64,000 bases of DNA, taken from contig CAMYID010000011.1 in assembly GCA_947258435.1 (NCBI GenBank), forward strand, positions 10,833 through 74,832, read 5' to 3'. The position numbers were made by a program, and so were the translations under genes. Numbering within the stretch: the first letter of the stretch is position 1; every line of letters starts with the position of its first letter. The notes beneath the pieces are model-generated. The model was given only the letters and a program-made list of their open reading frames with translations, had not been told where the DNA came from and searched no databases. This DNA is from an uncultured Alphaproteobacteria bacterium. Lineage in GTDB: Bacteria > Pseudomonadota > Alphaproteobacteria > UBA11222. Of this stretch, positions 3,528 to 14,345 are shown in pieces.

Positions 3528-4625
3528 CTATTCCGCAGCCTGGGCCAGTTCCATCAAAGGCGCGCCGGGCAATTTCTTGACCTCGGGCATTACCTCTTTT
3601 GCAAACAGGCGCATGCTTTTTTCTGCATCTTCGTAAGGCATGCCCGCATAGCTGAACACCGCGTTATAGGCACCCGAGCCTGTGCGCGATGTAAAATCGA
3701 CAATCCGTTTATAGCATTGCTCGGGCGTGCCCCAGACCTGAATGCTCATAAAGAACTCGATCATCGCATTGACGTTCTGGTTCGCCATATCCTGCATGGC
3801 GACGTAACTTTCATAGCCCTTCGTGTTCTTCAGATGGTCACCCTGCATCTCATAATGATCGACGACGGTCTGGTAATAGCCGCCGATATATTTCAGCGCC
3901 ATCTCCTCGGCACGGCCGGCATCCTCGTCACAATAGGTCCAGCCGCCCAGGATCGGCGCCGGGGCTTCCGTCCCGTTCACTTCCCGATAAATCGCGCGGT
4001 AATCGGTAAGTTCGCGTTCCACATGCTCCCAGGGCTTTTGCGGGATGATCAGAATCCCGACCCCGAGTCGCGCCATGATTTTTGACGATTCAGGGGATAC
4101 GGCGGCGGCATAGGTGCGCCCCTTGAAGCTCTTGAACGGACGTGGGCGGATCTCACGCCGCAGCTGCTTGACCAGTCGCCCGTCATATTCGCAAAAGCCG
4201 GTCTCAAGTCCCTCGAGAATCATTTCCGCGGATTCGGTGAAATATTCGCGGCTGTCATTCATGTCGCGGCCAAAACCGTCAAATTCCACCCGGCCAAGTC
4301 CGCGGCCGATCCCCAGGATCATCCGCCCGTTCGACATATTGTCGAGCATGGAAATCTCTTCCGCCACCCGTATCGGATCGTGCCAGGGCAGAACGATAAC
4401 CATCGAACCGAGCAGCAGCTTGTCGCTTTTCGCGGCGAAGTAACTCAGAAACTGAGTCACGTCGGGACACATGGTATAATCCGTAAAGTGGTGTTCCACA
4501 CTCCAGATCGACTGAAAACCAAGCTCTTCGGCCATCATCCCGAGCCGAAGCTCATTCTGATACACATATTGATCGGATTTCGACTGGTCGGTGCCCTGAA
4601 ACACCAATGCGAGGCCCACATCCAT
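3528..4625 (-). CDS. LLM-class (luciferase-like) flavin-dependent monooxygenase
   Basis: 365 aa, MDVGLALVFQG... with typical LLM TIM-barrel blocks (SIWSVEHHF, ISMLDNMSNGRMILGIGRG). Confidence 0.75.
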   Translation of the reverse strand: MDVGLALVFQGTDQSKSDQYVYQNELRLGMMAEELGFQSIWSVEHHFTDYTMCPDVTQFLSYFAAKSDKLLLGSMVIVLPWHDPIRVAEEISMLDNMSNGRMILGIGRGLGRVEFDGFGRDMNDSREYFTESAEMILEGLETGFCEYDGRLVKQLRREIRPRPFKSFKGRTYAAAVSPESSKIMARLGVGILIIPQKPWEHVERELTDYRAIYREVNGTEAPAPILGGWTYCDEDAGRAEEMALKYIGGYYQTVVDHYEMQGDHLKNTKGYESYVAMQDMANQNVNAMIEFFMSIQVWGTPEQCYKRIVDFTSRTGSGAYNAVFSYAGMPYEDAEKSMRLFAKEVMPEVKKLPGAPLMELAQAAE

Positions 4626-4815: not shown

Positions 4816-6108
4816 TCACTCTGCCGCCCGGGTCGGGTCGTCGCGCACAATGCTGATCCCCGAACCTGAGCGTTGCTCGGGCTCGGTCTGCGCTGCGCCG
4901 CCGCCCTCATCGGTGATCTGCCGACCAAGCGCGATGACATTGGGAATTTCCTCGTCAGTCAGCGCCTTCATGAATTGCTTGCGCGCCAAAGCCTTCTCGA
5001 TATAGGGGGCAAGCTCTTCATTCTTTTTCTTCTCCCGCTCCGCCTCGAACTCGCTGAACTCGGGTTTTACCTCGCGGGCGAACAGTTCCAGCGCCTCGCA
5101 AATATGTTCATGCCTGTTCTTGCCGCCCTGCTGTATGAAGGCGACCTGATCGACGCCGGCATCCTGGAAACCGCGCAGATGATTGCGCAACTGATCGGGT
5201 GTGCCGATACCACGCGCTTCACCTTCTTCGGGCAATGCACTGCGCGCCTGCTCGAAATTTTTCCAGATATCGGTCCGGCCGGGCTTATGCTCACCGAAAA
5301 TATAGTGATGGCCCAGCGCATAACCGAAGAATCGGAAGCCGTCCATGCCCCGGTCTTTTGCAACCTGTGCGTCCGGATGGACCGAAAACCCAGTCACCAT
5401 CGCGATATTGGCATTCACCGTATGGCCGATCGGCACGCATTCTTCAGACTTGATAATGGCATAGTAGTCATCCACCCATTTTTTTGCTTCCTCGGGGTCG
5501 ACGAAGGCAAAAGTCAGCGCGCCAATACCGCACCGTGCGGCAAGTTTGATTGTTTCGCGGTTGGAACAGGCAACCCAGATCGGCGGATGCGGACGCTGTA
5601 CCGGCTTGGGCACGATGTTGCGCGTCGGCATCTCAAAAAATTCGCCCTTGAAGCCGGGATAAGGGTCCATGACCATCATATTGGCGCATTGTTCGACGCA
5701 TTCGCGCCAGGCAGCCCGCTTGCGCGCCACATCGACATTATAGCCGCCAAGCTCAAGCAATGCGGAGGATTCGCCGGTTCCCCACTCAACCCGGCCATTT
5801 GACACCAGGTCAAGCGTGGCAATCCGTTCGGCCACCCGCGCGGGATGATTATAGCCGGGCGGCATCAGGACAATGCCATGCCCCAACCGGATATTTTTCG
5901 TCCGCTGCGAACAGGCGGCAAGAAACACCTCAGGTGCGGAAGAATGTGAATATTCCTCCAGAAAATGATGCTCGACCTCCCAGGCGAATTCGATCCCCAG
6001 ATTGTCGGCAAGCTCCACCTGCTTAAGCGCGTCCTGAAACAGTTGCTGTTCAAGTCCCTCCGTCCACGGACGCGGTAACTGATGCTCATAGAAAGTTCCG
6101 AACTTCAT
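4816..6108 (-). CDS. LLM-class flavin-dependent oxidoreductase (430 aa)
   Basis: MKFGTFYEHQLPRP...AWEVEHHF...IATLDLVSNGRVEWGTGES, a luciferase-like monooxygenase signature. Confidence 0.75.
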   Translation of the reverse strand: MKFGTFYEHQLPRPWTEGLEQQLFQDALKQVELADNLGIEFAWEVEHHFLEEYSHSSAPEVFLAACSQRTKNIRLGHGIVLMPPGYNHPARVAERIATLDLVSNGRVEWGTGESSALLELGGYNVDVARKRAAWRECVEQCANMMVMDPYPGFKGEFFEMPTRNIVPKPVQRPHPPIWVACSNRETIKLAARCGIGALTFAFVDPEEAKKWVDDYYAIIKSEECVPIGHTVNANIAMVTGFSVHPDAQVAKDRGMDGFRFFGYALGHHYIFGEHKPGRTDIWKNFEQARSALPEEGEARGIGTPDQLRNHLRGFQDAGVDQVAFIQQGGKNRHEHICEALELFAREVKPEFSEFEAEREKKKNEELAPYIEKALARKQFMKALTDEEIPNVIALGRQITDEGGGAAQTEPEQRSGSGISIVRDDPTRAAE

Positions 6109-6239: not shown

Positions 6240-7106
6240 CTATTTTCCCTGAAGCGCCTTGCTTGCGACAAGTTTGTCAAAACCATCAAGGATTGCGTTA
6301 TACCGCATCTCGACAACCGCACGCATATTGGGATCGGTGAAGATATAGGGCCAGTCGCCTTCCACCCCTTCGCGCACAAGTTCGCCTACAATGCGCGGAT
6401 CGAGACCGCCCTTGATGCCCTGAAGCATCATTTCCTGACGTGCGGCATCTGAATCGTTTTTCGGCGCAACCGGCTCAATCGGACCGCCGAACCGGTCCGG
6501 CCGGTTTCGGCCCGCATTGGTGATGTTTGTATTTACAAAACCGGGACACAGGACCGATGCGCTGATATTGGTTTTTTCAAGCTCCCCTCGCAGCACATCG
6601 CTGATGCCAACGGCTGCAAACTTTGTCGCTGTATAAGGGCCGCCTGTCGCACCCGCCGCGATAATTCCGGCCATGGAGGCAGTGGTCACAAAATGCCCGC
6701 CTTCGCCATGCGCCTTGATATGCGGCAAAAAAGCCTGAATGGCATAAACGATTGCCATCTGGTTGACGCCAACAACCCAGTCCCAATCGGATTGGGGAAT
6801 CTTTTCGATCGGCCCGCCGGCACCAATCCCGGCATTGTTGCAAACGATGTGAATCTTGCCAAACTCATCGAATGCCTTTTGCGCCGCCTCAAAAACCGTC
6901 TCGCGCATCGACACATCGCATAACACACCCGCAACGCGGACATTCGATTCGTCAGCCAGCGACGCAACGGCCTTATCAAGCGCCCCCTGCTCGATATCCG
7001 CGATCATGACATTCATGCCCTGGGCCGCGAATGCCTGGCCCATACCATAGCCAATGCCACTCGCACCGCCCGTTATGAAAGCGGTCTTTCCTGCCAGATC
7101 TTTCAT
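6240..7106 (-). CDS. SDR-family short-chain dehydrogenase/reductase
   Basis: TGGASGIG Rossmann motif, NNAG motif, and catalytic Y-x3-K (YTATK). Confidence 0.85.
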   Translation of the reverse strand: MKDLAGKTAFITGGASGIGYGMGQAFAAQGMNVMIADIEQGALDKAVASLADESNVRVAGVLCDVSMRETVFEAAQKAFDEFGKIHIVCNNAGIGAGGPIEKIPQSDWDWVVGVNQMAIVYAIQAFLPHIKAHGEGGHFVTTASMAGIIAAGATGGPYTATKFAAVGISDVLRGELEKTNISASVLCPGFVNTNITNAGRNRPDRFGGPIEPVAPKNDSDAARQEMMLQGIKGGLDPRIVGELVREGVEGDWPYIFTDPNMRAVVEMRYNAILDGFDKLVASKALQGK

Positions 7107-7112
7107 CCGGAA

Positions 7113-8147
7113 CTACTCCGCCGCCATCCGGCGCTGCTCCAGCGCCTCAAATTCAGCAAACAGCTTTTCGCCCTCAGGCGCAGCCAAAATCTGCTCACGC
7201 AGTGTATCGCGGGTCTGTTCGCGGTTCGCTTCAAAAGCGGTGGTCACATGCCATTCGATCATCGGCGCCCAGAGCGGATCGAACAGATCCTTGCCCGCGA
7301 TGGTGCCGCCATCGACGGTCTTGATCGTCAGCCCACGGAACTCGGACAACATCACCCTAAGGCTCGCCACATGGATATTCTCATCCTGGCGAATGCGGTC
7401 GATCAGCTCTGCCGCGAGTTTCACCCCTTCCGGGTTATTCTGAAAGGTATCGGTTGCACTGACGACGCTTTCATAGAAGCGGAAAGTCGCCTCCGCACGC
7501 ACCTCGATCATTGTGAGATTCATCAGCAGCAGAAGATATTCTTCATGCGCCTGCGGGATCTGCGGCATCAACCGCCCCTGTTCGGGCCGGCCGATCCGTT
7601 CGGGCGGCTCAGGCAGAGGGAACGCCCCTTCCCCGAACAATGCATCGCGCACGGCGAACCACATTTCATCATGCGCCCCGATATCGGTTGCCGGGTTACC
7701 CCCTTCATCCCAGCCATGCGCCACAAGCAGCCCCTTATTGAGATGCCCCAGACACATCTCACTGATATCCTCGACAATGATCTCCTGGAAATCCGGTGCC
7801 GGAAAATCAGCAAGCAGCTTGCCACGCCCTTCGATAATGCCGGCAATCGTCAGTGAGTTCCACAATGTCTGCGCGAAGCCATTACGCAAGAGAAATCGCT
7901 GCTGGTCCGTACTCGGATAATTTCCCATCTTGAGCAAATCCGGGCTGCAATCGATAAGCGGCAGACCCTTGCGCTCCACCTCCGCCTGCCAGGCATGGAT
8001 AGCGGGCCAGCGGTGGAGCGAACGGGGCGGCGTATAAACGCCCTCGGCATCAAAACCGCCATGTAGTTTATGCCCCGCGGCCTCATGAAACTGCGCAAAG
8101 GGATGACTGGCCATGAGTTCATCGGAGGAATAGACAAGCTTTAACAT
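7113..8147 (-). CDS. Uncharacterised 344-aa protein, paralog A of a tandem pair. Family not recognised. Conserved His and acidic residues suggest a metalloenzyme.
   Basis: Shares about 45% identity with the next gene over its full length. Blocks include LHGGFDA, GIIEGRGK, VEDISE..GHLNKGL, DIGAHDEMWF, EVRAE and RIRQDE.IHV. Confidence 0.5.
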   Translation of the reverse strand: MLKLVYSSDELMASHPFAQFHEAAGHKLHGGFDAEGVYTPPRSLHRWPAIHAWQAEVERKGLPLIDCSPDLLKMGNYPSTDQQRFLLRNGFAQTLWNSLTIAGIIEGRGKLLADFPAPDFQEIIVEDISEMCLGHLNKGLLVAHGWDEGGNPATDIGAHDEMWFAVRDALFGEGAFPLPEPPERIGRPEQGRLMPQIPQAHEEYLLLLMNLTMIEVRAEATFRFYESVVSATDTFQNNPEGVKLAAELIDRIRQDENIHVASLRVMLSEFRGLTIKTVDGGTIAGKDLFDPLWAPMIEWHVTTAFEANREQTRDTLREQILAAPEGEKLFAEFEALEQRRMAAE

Positions 8148-8216
8148 CTTACAGTCCTGCGGTTTACAAATCGAAGTTGGTGTTTCTGTCTGAACGGCTT
8201 TGGAGAGCGTCGGCGG

Positions 8217-9254
8217 CTATTCTGCCGCTGCGGCAAGCGGTGTCTCCAGCCGATCGAATTCAGCAATCAGCTTGTCTGAATCCGGCAGTTTTTCAAGCTG
8301 TCTTACGATGCTGCCGCGGGTTTGTTCGCGCGCCGTGTCATAGACCGTAGTCGAATGATAGCCGACCATCCCCTCCCATACGGGATCAAGCAGATCGCTG
8401 CCTTTGATCGTGCCGCCATCGACTGTTTTGAAGGTCAGGGTCCGCATCTCGGACAGCACCGCCTGCAAATAGCCGACATGGATCGCTTCATCCTGCCGGA
8501 TGCGTTCGACCATCTGTGCGGCCTGTTCGGCAACATCGCGGCGGTCGGTGAACATTTCAGGGTCGCGGAACAGCTCACAGCAGAAGGAGAACATTTTCTC
8601 TGCACGCACCTCGACCATCAGGATATTCATATAGATGAGCAGAAATTCCTCGAGCGTCTGCGGGATCTGCGGGAACAGCCGGCCCATCTCGGGCCGCCCG
8701 ATTTCCTCAGGTGCGGTCGGTACGGCATAGGCATCCTTGCCGAACAAAAGATCGCGGACGACAAACCACATCTCATCATGGGCACCGATATCACTGCCAT
8801 CCATGCCGCCTTCATCACGCCCATGTGCATGATGCAACCCCTTGTTCAGATGCCCGATAGCGAGTTCGGAGATATCCTCAACAAAGAATTCCTGAAAGTC
8901 GGGGCCGACAACATCGCTGAAAACCTTGCCGCGGCCTTCGATAATTCCGGTCAGTGTCAGCGAATCCCACAGGGTCTTGCCAAGACCATGCCGCAGCAGA
9001 AACTTCTGCTGCGCATGATTGGGGTAATTATCCCGTTTCAGCAGTTTCTGGCTGGCATCGATCAGCTTGCCGCCCCTGGCTTCAAGATTTTCCGCCCACT
9101 GCGCGACCGCAGGACCGCGATGCAGCATGCGCGGGGAGATGTAATTGCCCGCCGCGTCGAATCCGCCATGCAGCCGCTTGCCCATCACCTCATGGGGTTG
9201 CGCATAATCATGTTCGGCCATGATCTCGTCATAGCTGTAAACATTCTTTGCCAT
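8217..9254 (-). CDS. Uncharacterised 346-aa protein, paralog B of the tandem pair
   Basis: Start taken at MAKNVYSYDE, with an in-frame upstream extension possible. Same conserved blocks as 7113-8147. Confidence 0.5.
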   Translation of the reverse strand: MAKNVYSYDEIMAEHDYAQPHEVMGKRLHGGFDAAGNYISPRMLHRGPAVAQWAENLEARGGKLIDASQKLLKRDNYPNHAQQKFLLRHGLGKTLWDSLTLTGIIEGRGKVFSDVVGPDFQEFFVEDISELAIGHLNKGLHHAHGRDEGGMDGSDIGAHDEMWFVVRDLLFGKDAYAVPTAPEEIGRPEMGRLFPQIPQTLEEFLLIYMNILMVEVRAEKMFSFCCELFRDPEMFTDRRDVAEQAAQMVERIRQDEAIHVGYLQAVLSEMRTLTFKTVDGGTIKGSDLLDPVWEGMVGYHSTTVYDTAREQTRGSIVRQLEKLPDSDKLIAEFDRLETPLAAAAE

Positions 9255-9277
9255 TGTCAGCCTTTCCACCCTTGGTT

Positions 9278-9988
9278 CTACGGATCTTCCACCTTTATGA
9301 CGCCATCCGCATCGGGCCCGTTGACGATCCGCGCCTTGCCGTCGCAATCGGGCGCCGCCAACGCACGGACGACAAATTGCGTTACATTCCGCAGATAATG
9401 TTCCTTATCTTCCTGACTGCCATTGACCGGCATGGTGACCACGCTTGTGATCATCAGGATGACGCGCCCGATAATTTCCGGATCATAATCAGCCCAGGCC
9501 ATGCCGCTGCGCTGCGCATTACGGACTGCGACCGCCCAGGCCTTTGCCCATTCGTCGACAATCGATTCCGAGGAACCGCCATCTTCGCGGCTCATCAGCT
9601 GATGCCCCGCCCAGGCGGCGCGCAAAACACCGGGATTGGATTCGGAATATTCCATTGCGACTTTCAGCGCCGCGTAAACCCGCTCCGCACCATTGCGGCA
9701 TTTCGCAAGTTCAGGCTGCACCAGCGCCTGGATTTCTCCATGGGTCTGCGACACAAATGCCTGAAAACATTCCCGTTTATCTGCAAAATAGAGATAAAAA
9801 GTGCCATAGCCGACCCCTGCCTCGCGGGAGATATCCTGCGGACGGGTTTCATGATAGCCATGTTCGACAAACAGCTTGCGCGCGGCTGTCATCAAGCGTT
9901 CGCGGCTTTCCGCCTTTCGCCGCTCGCGCTTTGACAAGCCGTCTTTCGCCGCTGATTCGACGTGATTTATGTCATTGGTAACAGACAT
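9278..9988 (-). CDS. TetR/AcrR-family transcriptional regulator
   Basis: N-terminal HTH RERLMTAARKLFVEHGYHETRPQDISREAGVGYGTFYLYFADKRECF. AAGGAG RBS upstream of MSVTND. The upstream MTICQ start would swallow the RBS. Confidence 0.8.
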   Translation of the reverse strand: MSVTNDINHVESAAKDGLSKRERRKAESRERLMTAARKLFVEHGYHETRPQDISREAGVGYGTFYLYFADKRECFQAFVSQTHGEIQALVQPELAKCRNGAERVYAALKVAMEYSESNPGVLRAAWAGHQLMSREDGGSSESIVDEWAKAWAVAVRNAQRSGMAWADYDPEIIGRVILMITSVVTMPVNGSQEDKEHYLRNVTQFVVRALAAPDCDGKARIVNGPDADGVIKVEDP

Positions 9989-10010
9989 GTCAGTTATTCT
10001 CCTTTGAGCC

Positions 10011-10023
10011 TGACATATTGTCA
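10011..10023. promoter_or_regulatory. Inverted repeat TGACA-TAT-TGTCA in the tetR promoter region, a candidate TetR operator (autoregulation)
   Basis: Perfect 5-bp arms with a 3-bp spacer, 23-35 bp upstream of the tetR start. On the coding strand the sequence reads TTGACAATATGTCA, overlapping a TTGACA -35-like hexamer. Confidence 0.35.
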
Positions 10024-10278
10024 ATAAAATTACGCGCCACGCGCCGCATTTCCCCCAAACGCATCGTCACGACTCATGGGTGAGTATAGTTAGAATTTAT
10101 GGGAATGGCTGCCCGCAATTGGCGCAGGCAGTGGCGCGCCCCTGTTCATTGCACGGTTATCGCACCGGCAAGGGAGCGTGGAAAATCAGCGCAGGTGGGC
10201 AGCAGACCAGATTAACCGTAGACTGATTTTTCGGAGCTTCAGGCCGAATTTCCGGATTGTCCGCCCGGCGGCTGGCAA

Positions 10279-10530
10279 TCACCCGCCTTTGATCGCAGGC
10301 AAAAAATAGACTTCACTGTTATCTGCAATCGCCTCGAGAAACGGGTCGGAGAAAATTTCGCCATCGATTGCAATCGCAATGCCGTCGGATTGAAGCTCGG
10401 CGCCCAGACCCGGAAACATCTCGTCAAGTGCCCCGATAAGTTTGCGCACATTGACCGCATCCACGTCGAAATGCGTTTGGCCGCCAGCGAACTGGCGGCC
10501 AAGCTCATTGCTCAGAACGACCTGAGCCAT
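10279..10530 (-). CDS. MoaD/ThiS-family ubiquitin-like small sulfur-carrier-type protein (83 aa) with C-terminal Gly-Gly
   Basis: ...SEVYFLPAIKGG at the C-terminus. Size and beta-grasp-like pattern match MoaD. Lies immediately downstream of the Mo-subunit gene, in the same operon. Confidence 0.6.
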   Translation of the reverse strand: MAQVVLSNELGRQFAGGQTHFDVDAVNVRKLIGALDEMFPGLGAELQSDGIAIAIDGEIFSDPFLEAIADNSEVYFLPAIKGG

Positions 10531-10542
10531 ATTTTCTACCTC

Positions 10543-12804
10543 TTAGCTGTCAAGCGCGGAGACGATCGCCGGCGGCGACAGCGGCAGATCCGTCATCCGT
10601 TTGCCGATTGCGTGTGACACTGCATTGGCGGTGGCACCAAGTGGCGGCACGATCGGCACCTCGCCCACACCACGCACACCAAACGGATGTGCGGGGTTCG
10701 GCACCTCGACAATGACCGTATCGATCATCGGCAGATCGGATGCGACAGGCATCCGGTAATCGAGGAAGCCCGGATTCTGCAACCGGCCATCTTCGCCATA
10801 GATATACTCTTCATTGAGAGCCCAGCCGACGCCCTGGGCAACACCGCCCTGCATCTGACCTTCCACATAGCCCGGATGAATGGCCTTGCCCGCGTCCTGC
10901 ACCGCAGTGTAGCGCAGCACCGTCACATGGCCGGTATCGGGATCAACCTCCACATCGCAGATATGGGTGCCAAAACCCGCACCTGCACCGCGTGCGTTGA
11001 TCGCGGCCTTGCCATTGATCGGCCCGCCCGTGCGGCCCGCCTTCGCGGCGATATCGGCAAGCGAAAGCGGCTTGAAGTCACCCGCATTGGCGCTGGCCGG
11101 GCGCGCGAAGCCGTCTTCCCAGACGACTGCGTCCACGCCGATATCCCAGGTCATGGCAGCACGTTCACGCAATTGCTGCACAACATCCTCAGCCGCCTGA
11201 ATAATCGCCATGCCGGTCGCAAAAGTCACGCGGCTGCCGCCGGTCACATCGTTGTAGCCGATACTGGCAGTGTCACCGACAATGATCTTGACCTTGTTAT
11301 AATCGACACCCAGCACTTCGGCCGCCATCATGGCCAGCGAGGCTCGCGAACCGCCAATATCGGGATTGCCGGAGATCACACAGACCGTGCCGTCTTCCGC
11401 CACATTGACCGTCGCGCTCGACTGCATGCCGATATTGAACCAGAAGCCCGAGGCCACACCGCGCCCCTGATTGGGACCAAGCGGGATATTATAGTTCGGA
11501 TGCGCCTTTGCGGCCTCCAGCGTTTCGATATAGCCGATGCTCTTGAACTTCGGCCCATAGGGGGCCTGGGTCCCTTCTTTTGCGGCGTTTTTGAGCCGCA
11601 GATCGATCGGATCCATCCCCAGCTCCTGCGCCAGCTCGTCAATCGCGCTTTCAACCGCAAATGACGCCATGGGCGCACCCGGCGCCCGGTAAGACGCACT
11701 GAGGGGCCGGTTGACGACCACATCGTAGCCGACCGTCTTGACATTCTCGAGCGCATAGGGCGCAAAAGCCGTCATGCAGCCCGGCGCCACCGGCGAACCG
11801 GGATAGGCACCTGCCTGATATTTCAGCTCCGCCTCGGCACCCTGGATCTTGCCATCCCTGGTCGCACCGATTTTGACACGCATGGCTGTCCCCGAGGTCG
11901 GGCCGGTTGCCCGGAATACTTCGTCGCGCGACATGACCATCCGCACCGGACGGTGGGACTTGCGCGACAGGAGTGCGGCAACAGGTTCAAGATAGATCGT
12001 GGTCTTGCCCCCAAAACCACCGCCGATTTCCGCCGGGGTGACACGCACCTGCGCCAGCTCCAGATCGAGCAGCTTGGCTGTGAAGGTCCGGACCATGAAC
12101 TGGCCCTGGCTGGAACACCAGATGCGGCATTCGTCGTTTTCGGTCCATTCGACAACCGCCGCATGCGGCTCGATATAGCCCTGATGAACCGGTTGTGTCG
12201 TATAGTTACGCTCGATCACTACGTCGGACTTTTCATAGCCCGCATCCGGGTCACCGAAACCCATCTGCACCCGCATCACCACATTGGACGGCTTTTCCGG
12301 CTTCGGCTCGACGCCGGCGGTAAAAATCGTATCGTGCAGAACCGGCGCATCGGGTTTCATCGATTCTTCCACGTCGATCACATGTGGCAGAACCTCATAC
12401 TCTACCTCGATCAGGCTCAGCGCCTCATTGGCAACCGCATCGCTGATCGCAGCGACAGCGGCGACCGGATGCCCGTCATACAACACCTTGTCATGTGCCA
12501 TGATATTGTTGGACAGATAGCGGAAATTAACCGCACCTTCACCGGCCTGCGCCATCTCGGACGGCATTTCAGGCATATCCGCACCGGTAACGATCGCCTT
12601 CACGCCCGGCAGCGCGGCCGCCTTGTCCGTGTTGATCGAGACGATTTTTGCATGCGGGTGCGGGCTGCGGAGAATTTTTCCCGTCAGCATCCCGGGCAAG
12701 TTCAGGTCCGCACCGAAATTGGCGCGGCCGGTAACCTTGTCGACCCCATCGGGACGGATCTGACGGGTGCCGACCCACTTCAGTTCTTTATCTTCATATC
12801 CCAT
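10543..12804 (-). CDS. Xanthine-dehydrogenase-family molybdopterin-binding large subunit (CoxL-like), not a true CO dehydrogenase
   Basis: 753 aa. Aldehyde oxidase / XDH Mo-binding blocks are present. The active-site loop reads SYRAPG rather than the AYRCSFR of form-I CODH. Confidence 0.8.
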   Translation of the reverse strand: MGYEDKELKWVGTRQIRPDGVDKVTGRANFGADLNLPGMLTGKILRSPHPHAKIVSINTDKAAALPGVKAIVTGADMPEMPSEMAQAGEGAVNFRYLSNNIMAHDKVLYDGHPVAAVAAISDAVANEALSLIEVEYEVLPHVIDVEESMKPDAPVLHDTIFTAGVEPKPEKPSNVVMRVQMGFGDPDAGYEKSDVVIERNYTTQPVHQGYIEPHAAVVEWTENDECRIWCSSQGQFMVRTFTAKLLDLELAQVRVTPAEIGGGFGGKTTIYLEPVAALLSRKSHRPVRMVMSRDEVFRATGPTSGTAMRVKIGATRDGKIQGAEAELKYQAGAYPGSPVAPGCMTAFAPYALENVKTVGYDVVVNRPLSASYRAPGAPMASFAVESAIDELAQELGMDPIDLRLKNAAKEGTQAPYGPKFKSIGYIETLEAAKAHPNYNIPLGPNQGRGVASGFWFNIGMQSSATVNVAEDGTVCVISGNPDIGGSRASLAMMAAEVLGVDYNKVKIIVGDTASIGYNDVTGGSRVTFATGMAIIQAAEDVVQQLRERAAMTWDIGVDAVVWEDGFARPASANAGDFKPLSLADIAAKAGRTGGPINGKAAINARGAGAGFGTHICDVEVDPDTGHVTVLRYTAVQDAGKAIHPGYVEGQMQGGVAQGVGWALNEEYIYGEDGRLQNPGFLDYRMPVASDLPMIDTVIVEVPNPAHPFGVRGVGEVPIVPPLGATANAVSHAIGKRMTDLPLSPPAIVSALDS

Positions 12805-12805
12805 T

Positions 12806-13282
12806 TTACGATCCTCTCATTTCTGCGGCGACGTCGAGCACCGAACGAATGATCTTGTCATAGCCTGTGCAGCGGCACAGATTGCCCGCAAGCCAGTAAC
12901 GGACTTCGGTTTCCGTCGGATCCGGATTGCGCTCAAGCAGGTTTTTCGCGGCGACCAGAAAGCCTGGAGTGCAGAAGCCGCACTGCAATGCCGCCTCCTC
13001 CAGGAATTTTTGCTGTAGCGGATGCAGCTCATCACCTTCGGCCATACCTTCGATCGTCTCGATCTTCGCGCCGTCCAGTTCAGCACCCAGCGCCAGGCAG
13101 GAACAAACAAGCCGGCCATCAAGGATCACGCTGCACGCCCCGCAGTCACCCGAAGAGCAACCTTCCTTTGTACCCGTCAGGTTCAGCTCATCGCGCAATA
13201 CATCCAGCATAGTCTGTTGCGGGTCGCAAAGATATTCGACCTCTTCACCATTGACTGTCGCAGTTACATGAAATTTAGCCAT
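12806..13282 (-). CDS. (2Fe-2S)-binding small subunit (CoxS-like)
   Basis: CSSGDCGACS and CGFCTPG ... CRCTGY cysteine motifs. Confidence 0.85.
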   Translation of the reverse strand: MAKFHVTATVNGEEVEYLCDPQQTMLDVLRDELNLTGTKEGCSSGDCGACSVILDGRLVCSCLALGAELDGAKIETIEGMAEGDELHPLQQKFLEEAALQCGFCTPGFLVAAKNLLERNPDPTETEVRYWLAGNLCRCTGYDKIIRSVLDVAAEMRGS

Positions 13283-14154
13283 TAGTTACTCCCTGCCCGC
13301 TCAAGCGCAATTTTTGCCGCACGCTGGGCAAGCACCCCGGCGACCTTTTTGCGATATTCAATTGTGCCGCGTTTATCATCAATCGGATTGCACGCGGCGC
13401 TGGCCGCAGCAGCCAGTTTTGTCAGCGCGGCCTCATCAACCTTCGTCCCGACCAGCGCAGCACCGGCATCCTTGACAAGCAGCACGGTCGGCGCAACCGC
13501 CCCCAACGCCACCCGCGCGGCCGTGCAGACGCCCTGATCGTCAAGTGTCAGGTTGACCCCCGCACCAACGATCGCGATATCCATTTCCGTCCGCGGGATC
13601 ATGCGCAAATAGGCATCGCCGGAATGCGCCGGGCGCGGCGGCAGCTTGATCGCCACGACGAATTCACCCTTCGCCAGCGAGGTTTTCCCCGGAGCCGTCG
13701 GAATTTCTTCTACCGGCACTTCGCGGCGGCCATTTGGCCCGGCCACGATACAAACGGCGCCAGCGGCCACAATGCCGGGCACGCTATCGGCGGCAGGCGA
13801 GGCATTGCAAAGATTGCCCCCCAATGACGCGCGTCCCTGTACCTGCGTCGAACCGATCAGATCCATCGCCTCGACCACACCGGGCCATGTTTTGTGCAGG
13901 GCGTCATTTTCGCTGATCGCCTGTCCGCATACCGCAGCGCCGATCAGAAAGCTGCCATCGCTTTCCTGCCTGATAGTATTCAGTTCGTCGATACGCTTGA
14001 TATCGACAACCAGGTCCGGTTTGACGATGCCGGCACGCAACTGCACCAGTAAATCGGTTCCCCCCGCCAGCACGCGGACATTGCCGGCGGCATTCGCCAG
14101 CACACCCACCGCCTCGTCGACCGACGCCGGAGCTTCAAATTGAAATCCGCTCAT
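13282..14154 (-). CDS. FAD-binding subunit of a molybdenum hydroxylase (CoxM-like)
   Basis: Start at MSGFQFEAPASVDEAV. Contains VLAGGTDL FAD-binding motif. Gene order M-S-L with 1-nt start/stop overlaps. Confidence 0.75.
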   Translation of the reverse strand: MSGFQFEAPASVDEAVGVLANAAGNVRVLAGGTDLLVQLRAGIVKPDLVVDIKRIDELNTIRQESDGSFLIGAAVCGQAISENDALHKTWPGVVEAMDLIGSTQVQGRASLGGNLCNASPAADSVPGIVAAGAVCIVAGPNGRREVPVEEIPTAPGKTSLAKGEFVVAIKLPPRPAHSGDAYLRMIPRTEMDIAIVGAGVNLTLDDQGVCTAARVALGAVAPTVLLVKDAGAALVGTKVDEAALTKLAAAASAACNPIDDKRGTIEYRKKVAGVLAQRAAKIALERAGSN

Positions 14155-14345
14155 CTTACTCCCTTGCTCTTCCTCTCGCCGGGCCAGGTTCGGCATGCAT
14201 CGGGTTAACTCAACTGTCCCCGCAACGCGCCTCCTGATGCCGCCATCAGATTATTATTTGCAGACGTGAATTTCCGCATGGCCTGACCAGCCTGCACGAA
14301 TCCACGCATACTTTGATCAATAACTTATCAGAGATTTGCACTTAA

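Follow-up and report, generated by a model that had tools for sequence, protein, structure and literature searches.

A tandem pair of unnamed, probably ferritin-like proteins in a putative TetR-controlled oxidative operon of an uncultured alphaproteobacterium

The 64,000-nucleotide stretch analysed here (contig CAMYID010000011.1 of assembly GCA_947258435.1, an uncultured Alphaproteobacteria bacterium; hereafter the window) carries two adjacent paralogous genes, XA and XB, which we assign together with their relatives to a family X. All genes of the region lie on the minus strand, in the order CoxM-, CoxS- and CoxL-like genes of a molybdenum (Mo) hydroxylase, a small ThiS/MoaD-like open reading frame (ORF), a TetR-family regulator gene, XB, XA, an SDR-family dehydrogenase gene and two genes for luciferase-like (LLM-class) monooxygenases, LLM430 and LLM365. 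The gaps are 23 nt between TetR and XB, 69 nt between XB and XA, and 6 nt between XA and SDR. The outlying genes of the window are housekeeping genes.

XA and XB are genuine coding genes. An earlier reading of this DNA, made from its letters and ORF translations only (the sequence-only reading), had described two adjacent paralogues of about 345 amino acids (aa), and both ORFs are found on the same strand at the positions it gave; the nine blocks that it quoted as common to the pair are all present in the translations. Its estimate of about 45% identity was too low, because BLASTP aligns the two proteins without gaps at 191 of 343 identical positions (56%, E 4e-141). XA has a ratio of nonsynonymous to synonymous substitutions (dN/dS, NG86 method, nine species-level orthologues) of 0.11 and XB one of 0.08, indicating purifying selection on both. 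XB starts at the ATG at position 9254. A longer TTG-start version of this ORF (8217-9347, minus strand) was rejected, as it overlaps the TetR gene and the gene calls on related contigs give 345 aa. The mechanical ORF list also contains antisense shadow ORFs on the plus strand within 7054-9398 (7248-7856 and 8322-9398), and when the ORFs of different loci are clustered, some of these shadows even form seemingly "conserved" groups (c2, c5 and c6). These and the extended XB are artefacts of GC-rich coding sequence.

The proteins had been said to belong to no recognisable family, and all searches agree with this. XA and XB have no Pfam-A or NCBIfam match even at E≤1, and phmmer against all PDB chains returned noise only. 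Every public copy is named "hypothetical protein", including the RefSeq record from Parvibaculum indicum, whose WP_167089754.1 is an example of a single-copy orthologue. When 37 diverse members were scanned against Pfam at E≤10, only two stray weak matches appeared, one to Ferritin_2 (1.3e-3) and one to Ribonuc_red_sm (0.21); the models of MiaE (PF06175), ADO (PF11266) and AurF (PF11583) matched none of the 37. A literature search found no paper on the family or its operon.

The family is moderately large. With clustering at 90%, a word-indexed search gave 1,533 relatives of XA, most of them in Parvibaculum, Rhizomicrobium and other Alphaproteobacteria. A branch of about 30% identity comprises at least 3,455 clusters in Actinomycetota/Acidimicrobiales, again with no name or Pfam domain. 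In a scan of one genome per species family X was present in 287 species, and no plasmid carriage was found. A HMMER profile was also searched exhaustively against 1.84 billion representatives; 620 clusters passed E≤1e-3, and 118 passed E≤1e-30. Each of the 620 is a member of the family or a fragment of one, with no bridge to a known family, so that family X stands isolated in sequence space.

Conservation was computed over 279 full-length members from two phyla. Residues P41, A49, W53, P78, H135, D147, H159, W163 and R167 are invariant; H29, Y38, R46, E106, E148, D168, E202, E215, D255, E256, H259 and E269 are conserved at 98-99.6%; and H144 is kept in 96% of the members and replaced by Gln in the rest. 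All 14 candidate active-site residues are retained in both paralogues and in 18 of the 18 orthologues examined. The E-x-x-H motif noticed earlier corresponds to E256-N-I-H259, with E256 conserved at 99% and H259 at 99.6%; E106 and E215 also reach 99%. The H-D-E block pointed out with it (H159-D160-E161) holds up in its histidine alone: D160 is found in 48% and E161 in 6% of the members.

What fold carries these residues? The AlphaFold2 model of XA, built from a 32-sequence alignment, is all-helical (predicted local distance difference test score, pLDDT, 87; predicted template modelling score, pTM, 0.87), with long helices at 93-114, 133-147, 159-171, 199-229, 239-271 and 285-321. Its core is predicted to be a four-helix bundle with the fold of R2, ADO, MiaE or bacterioferritin. 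In structure comparison the model scores 10.4 with CmlI, 10.3 with sMMO and 10.1 with AurF. Heme-oxygenase-like and TenA/PqqC bundles likewise score 9-11, and for this reason structure alone cannot fully part the two helical-bundle superfamilies. About 190-205 residues align to enzyme-type bundles against 130-145 to mini-ferritins. The protein has some 150 additional residues that are strongly conserved, and among them is the invariant N-terminal block HGG...Y.SPR...PA..W. A Foldseek search of the PDB gave nothing significant (best E 0.42), which places family X as a distant member of the ferritin-like fold class.

Profile comparisons were made as well. The family profile weakly matches bacterioferritins, with E 0.022 at best, and also a diiron protein designed de novo; the matches run through I-R-x-D-E-x-x-H-V-x-Y-L, that is, D255-E256-x-x-H259. 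When aligned by hhalign with Escherichia coli bacterioferritin, in helix D only, this motif falls on the ligands E127 and H130; with a single AurF-domain protein from an actinobacterial locus (L093), helices C and D align (E 0.0026). Local comparison of the 279-member profile with an alignment of 118 AurF relatives (PF11583) gives a probability of 65% and E 6e-5, and pairs E215 with the Glu of helix C and E256/H259 with the E-x-x-H of helix D; the -glob mode of hhalign gave no result with this alignment, so that local mode is needed, and the N-terminal half is unreliable even then. Because E215 and E256/H259 align to AurF-family ligands, the C-terminal half of the canonical diiron site, a helix-C Glu followed by a helix-D E-x-x-H, is present and in register.

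The N-terminal half of the site possibly has a non-canonical form. In the model E106 lies on helix 93-114, placed as a helix-A-type Glu could be. The next helix, 133-147, carries H135 and H144-x-x-D147-E148 instead of an E-x-x-H, and H159 follows. Judged by the length and phase of the helix, H144, D147 and E148 would point to the same side of it. H135 would be about 13 Å away, at the bundle end near E202 and E269, which hints at a second conserved polar cluster.

We therefore regard family X as very probably a member of the ferritin-like superfamily. The sequence-only reading had speculated about an undescribed non-heme diiron enzyme, and the predicted fold, the C-terminal half-site and the conservation speak in its favour. 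Metal binding and O2 chemistry are what we infer from them, and we think an O2-activating metalloenzyme moderately probable.

The family resembles the soluble single-subunit ferritin-like oxygenases MiaE, ADO, AurF/CmlI and R2lox, and by their sequence models it belongs to none of them. It is only 12-14% identical to the MiaE-like aldehyde-deformylating ferritin-fold protein (PDB 8fhc) and to cyanobacterial ADO (5ux2, 5uwz), is about 130 residues longer than these with a conserved N-terminal module, lacks the first E-x-x-H, and has no Pfam MiaE or ADO match. The N-terminal half cannot be reliably aligned with the N-oxygenases AurF and CmlI, whose model (PF11583) matches no member; AurF has the canonical E...E-x-x-H first half and an extra His, and the genomic context of family X gives no hint of an arylamine. 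From R2lox and the class I ribonucleotide reductase (RNR) subunit R2 it differs in ligand pattern, no radical-site Tyr context was identified in it, and the only Ribonuc_red_sm match was the weak one mentioned above. The heme-oxygenase-like diiron oxidases (HDOs: UndA, HrmI, SznF-HDO, BesC, CADD) have a three-His/three-carboxylate site with H-x3-D/E-x2-H on the third core helix. Family X lacks this motif and has a ferritin-type D-E-x-x-H, and its sole sequence links are to ferritin-like proteins. It is best filed as a new family in a known superfamily, set apart by rearranged ligands and by an additional conserved module at the N-terminus.

It is useful to trace the neighbourhood of these genes across taxa. 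We compared 80 species-level loci by tblastn with the window proteins and by unbiased clustering of ORFs; the sample is skewed towards Alphaproteobacteria, and the actinobacterial contexts are five loci. Family X was found in all 80. A TetR gene on the same strand lies upstream in 77 of them (median distance 46 nt), and an SDR gene directly downstream in 65 (median 3 nt). LLM430 follows X or SDR in about 25 of the 80 loci at 69-87% identity (mostly 76-81%). LLM365 is downstream in L009-L017 at 76-96% identity and is thus part of the module in the clade of the window. In the sister clade L010-L017 the whole set tetR-XB-XA-SDR-LLM lies among housekeeping genes, flanked at one end by RelA, PdxJ, LepB, Rnc, Era, RecO and CtaA and at the other by PurM and PurN, which argues for a self-contained module. 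In the actinobacterial loci TetR is divergent and adjacent to X in two of five, LLM genes flank or precede X in two of five, and SDRs, an acyl-CoA synthetase and a hydrolase occur nearby. The link of X with TetR and LLM/SDR genes therefore recurs across phyla, as far as five loci can tell. Among solved structures the closest relatives of the SDR are an uncharacterised Novosphingobium SDR and C-alpha-dehydrogenases of the LigD/L/N type, which act on secondary alcohols (E 1e-46 to 1e-53), and that of LLM365 is the bacterial luciferase alpha subunit (E 3e-34). Coordinates of all features are given in Table 1.

Table 1. Genes and regulatory features of the region (window positions)
Feature	Position	Strand	Remarks
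LLM365	3528-4625	-	LuxA-like LLM-class monooxygenase, 365 aa; Pfam Bac_luciferase E 6e-57
LLM430	4816-6108	-	luciferase-like (LLM-class) flavin-dependent monooxygenase, 430 aa; Pfam Bac_luciferase E 1.6e-48
SDR-family dehydrogenase	6240-7106	-	Pfam adh_short E 6e-44
XA	7113-8147	-	344 aa; extra paralogue, window's clade only
XB	8217-9254	-	345 aa; orthologue of the single-copy gene in other Alphaproteobacteria
TetR-family regulator	9278-9988	-	first gene of the operon; Pfam TetR_N E 1.1e-14
Second near-palindrome TAACTGACATGTCTGTTA	9979-9996	-	spans the TetR start codon
Sigma-70-like promoter TTGACA-17-GAGAAT	9996-10024	-	best promoter-like site of the region (10/12)
Perfect palindrome TGACA-ATA-TGTCA, candidate TetR operator	10011-10023	-	contains the -35 box of the promoter
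ThiS/MoaD-like ORF	10279-10530	-	83 aa; PF02597 in related contigs
CoxL-like Mo-hydroxylase large subunit	10543-12804	-	
CoxS-like	12806-13282	-	
CoxM-like	13282-14196	-	

The promoter-like site lies about 8 nt upstream of the TetR start codon (position 9988). The pattern TGACA-N0-4-TGTCA has this single match in the entire window, with 0.21 expected, and in 49 of 74 related loci TGACA-N3-TGTCA again precedes the gene of the TetR homologue, compared with a background of 0.016 per 360 bp. The palindrome is a strong candidate for the TetR operator and likely to be it, and it implies autoregulated, effector-inducible expression of the whole module. The adjacent TetR gene and the palindrome inside the promoter are those expected of a TetR-regulated catabolic operon.

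How did the tandem pair arise? About 70 of the 80 genomes have a single copy of X, 54-60% identical to the genes of the window and usually closer to XB. In a neighbour-joining tree XB groups with the single-copy genes of other genomes, and XA forms a separate clade confined to L009-L017 and the window. Each copy has its own fixed changes at positions that hardly vary otherwise: S40P, R74M, L212T and A257N in the XA clade, and L141H, A165V, L208Y and I214V in the XB clade. Several of these lie close to the putative ligands. A257N (codon 7377-7379) falls inside E256-x-x-H259, I214V is beside E215, and L141H creates a run H-H-A-H (XB residues 141-144, window positions 8820-8831) on the putative ligand helix; positions 141 and 257 are at least 96% invariant in single-copy members. 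This pattern can be explained by two enzymes that are both catalytically competent and whose pockets have changed, or by a heterodimer with co-adapted partners. A degenerate structural subunit does not fit; both copies keep 14 of 14 candidate residues and both are under purifying selection.

Taken together, the reading that we prefer, and think moderately probable, is that XA and XB are diverged copies of an unnamed family of ferritin-like dimetal-carboxylate enzymes in a TetR-controlled oxidative operon. Each copy would hold a two-metal centre (Fe/Fe or Mn/Fe) inside the helical bundle, with E215 and E256-x-x-H259 from the two long C-terminal core helices as ligands and a non-canonical N-terminal half-site drawing on E106, H135, H144, D147/E148 and H159. 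With this centre the enzyme would activate O2 for the oxidation of a small substrate, probably a lipophilic one. The TetR repressor may occupy TGACA-N3-TGTCA, and with it the -35 box, and come off when it meets the substrate or a related effector. X would then hydroxylate or otherwise oxidise the substrate, the SDR would turn the resulting alcohol into a carbonyl compound, and the luciferase-like monooxygenase(s) would oxygenate the carbonyl by a Baeyer-Villiger reaction or from aldehyde to acid. This particular order of three steps is a doubtful element of the scheme. Tandem duplication in the lineage of the window may have produced two substrate specificities or a heterodimer.

Several observations weigh against this scheme. 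The canonical first E-x-x-H, which belongs to the N-terminal half-site, is absent; nearly all members have Leu (XB has His) three residues ahead of H144. Clustering of ORFs in the 80 loci found no conserved ferredoxin or reductase near X, which leaves the electron source of such an oxygenase unexplained; AurF, ADO and MiaE likewise use generic electron donors. No neighbouring enzyme reaches a curated functional cut-off, and it is from gene content that we infer both the order of steps and the class of substrate.

Other explanations have different starting points. Family X might be a metal-free helical-bundle enzyme or binding protein of the heme-oxygenase-like, TenA or PqqC type, which would hold and convert an anionic substrate with its invariant His, Arg and Trp residues and need no dimetal cofactor; we consider this unlikely. 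Within the ferritin-like superfamily itself, family X might be non-catalytic towards organic substrates, its dimetal site acting on iron or peroxide, for example in iron storage or as a ferroxidase, in peroxide detoxification like rubrerythrin or Dps, or as a lipid-binding protein resembling R2lox. The longer alignment to enzyme-type bundles than to mini-ferritins and the large additional conserved portion, with its invariant N-terminal block, both speak against this. The partners in the operon are TetR, SDR and flavin monooxygenases and not iron or oxidative-stress genes, and such a role seems to us improbable.

Two further explanations concern partners of the pair. XA and XB could form an obligate heterodimer of one catalytic and one structural or regulatory subunit, comparable to PaaA/PaaC or to the alpha and beta subunits of multicomponent monooxygenases. 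Retention of the tandem pair in at least nine species-level genomes and the fixed changes of each copy at otherwise family-invariant positions would suit this. However, structural subunits such as PaaC have lost ligands, whereas XA and XB both keep the full set of candidate residues under equally strong constraint, and since about 70 of the 80 genomes manage with one copy the ancestral X works as a homomer. An obligate division of labour is accordingly given little chance here. The sequence-only reading had instead seen a dedicated step tied to the adjacent Mo hydroxylase (10543-14196), which could mean, for example, processing of an N-heterocycle or aldehyde that is substrate or product of this hydroxylase. 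In the window and in L009 the two sets of genes are immediate neighbours, and a different, stand-alone 779-aa molybdenum cofactor (MoCo)-binding protein is encoded upstream of X in 57 of the 80 loci at a median distance of 1.6 kb. The three-subunit enzyme, however, is found with the pair in no related locus but L009, essentially the species of the window itself; L010-L017 have the same tandem pair without it, so that the suggested co-occurrence with CoxMSL-like genes is not conserved. The 779-aa protein is only 26-31% identical to the large subunit of the window, is parted from tetR-X by other genes, and its position probably reflects synteny among related genera. In addition, the promoter with its operator and a terminator-like hairpin lie between the Mo genes and tetR in the window, and no member of this Mo enzyme family was seen in the five actinobacterial contexts. 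The conserved partners are TetR, SDR and the luciferase-like monooxygenase instead, and a role in the pathway of the Mo hydroxylase is very improbable.

If the dimetal enzyme reading is right, then we can ask: how new would such an enzyme be? A bolder version, which we put forward only tentatively and which is rather more likely to fail than to hold, sees family X as the founder of a new class of soluble dimetal oxygenases, in which the first half-site has changed from E...E-x-x-H to H...H-x-x-D-E...H. Such an enzyme would need no reductase of its own and would form, with SDR and LLM, a hitherto unrecognised three-enzyme oxidation pathway dependent on O2, common to Parvibaculaceae/Rhizomicrobium and Acidimicrobiia; in the lineage of the window it would have split into two specialised or heterodimeric copies. 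The same version may add a second invariant His/Glu cluster (H135, E202, E269) at the bundle end.

Diiron and Mn/Fe carboxylate enzymes catalyse hydroxylation of alkanes and aromatics, N-oxygenation, desaturation and deformylation, which rank with the most difficult biological oxidations, and new families among them have repeatedly brought new chemistry. Thousands of proteins from two phyla belong to family X, some of them from hydrocarbon- and surfactant-degrading Parvibaculum, and the family has neither a model nor a name. It is directly testable because of its sharply defined set of invariant residues and its fixed context of repressor, dehydrogenase and flavin monooxygenase. The operator and the repressor offer a handle on the inducer, which may be the substrate, and cultured hosts exist in Parvibaculum indicum DSM 25305, P. 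sedimenti HXT-9 and Tepidicaulis marinus MA2. At a minimum the family merits a database model and a name; we regard it as a target for enzyme discovery rather than as a conceptual surprise.

Some features of the surrounding genes deserve mention on their own. The ThiS/MoaD-like ORF begins 13 nt past the stop codon of the Mo-hydroxylase large subunit. A sulfur-carrier-like protein is unusual in an operon of the CoxMSL type, and it might be tied to maturation of the Mo cofactor. Many Parvibaculaceae and Rhizomicrobium genomes (L018-L088) share a block of genes located upstream of tetR-X, at 1.6-6 kb from X. Besides the MoCo protein (57 of the 80 loci), it includes a class II aldolase (46), a GlcD-like FAD-linked oxidase (32) and an FGGY kinase (29); no FeS or FAD subunits were found near this block.

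LLM430 is far more constrained than its operon partners. Across the genera of L018-L085 it remains 69-87% identical, where X is only 52-60% and SDR 44-52% identical. It also has a C-terminal extension of about 80 aa past the LLM domain and reaches no curated NCBIfam cut-off.

In two of the five actinobacterial loci the gene of a MauE/DoxX-like membrane protein stands directly after X (L092, 7134-7655; L093, 7122-7652), followed by unannotated ORFs, and is possibly a branch-specific partner. In L093, a contig from an actinobacterial metagenome, a TetR gene lies about 3.4 kb downstream of the X homologue, and next to it comes the gene for a fusion of an AurF-domain diiron oxygenase with an SCP2 sterol/lipid-carrier domain (10487-12465). 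Two different ferritin-like oxygenases, each near a TetR gene, are thus found in one neighbourhood. The AurF-SCP2 fusion family has many members in Acidimicrobiales.

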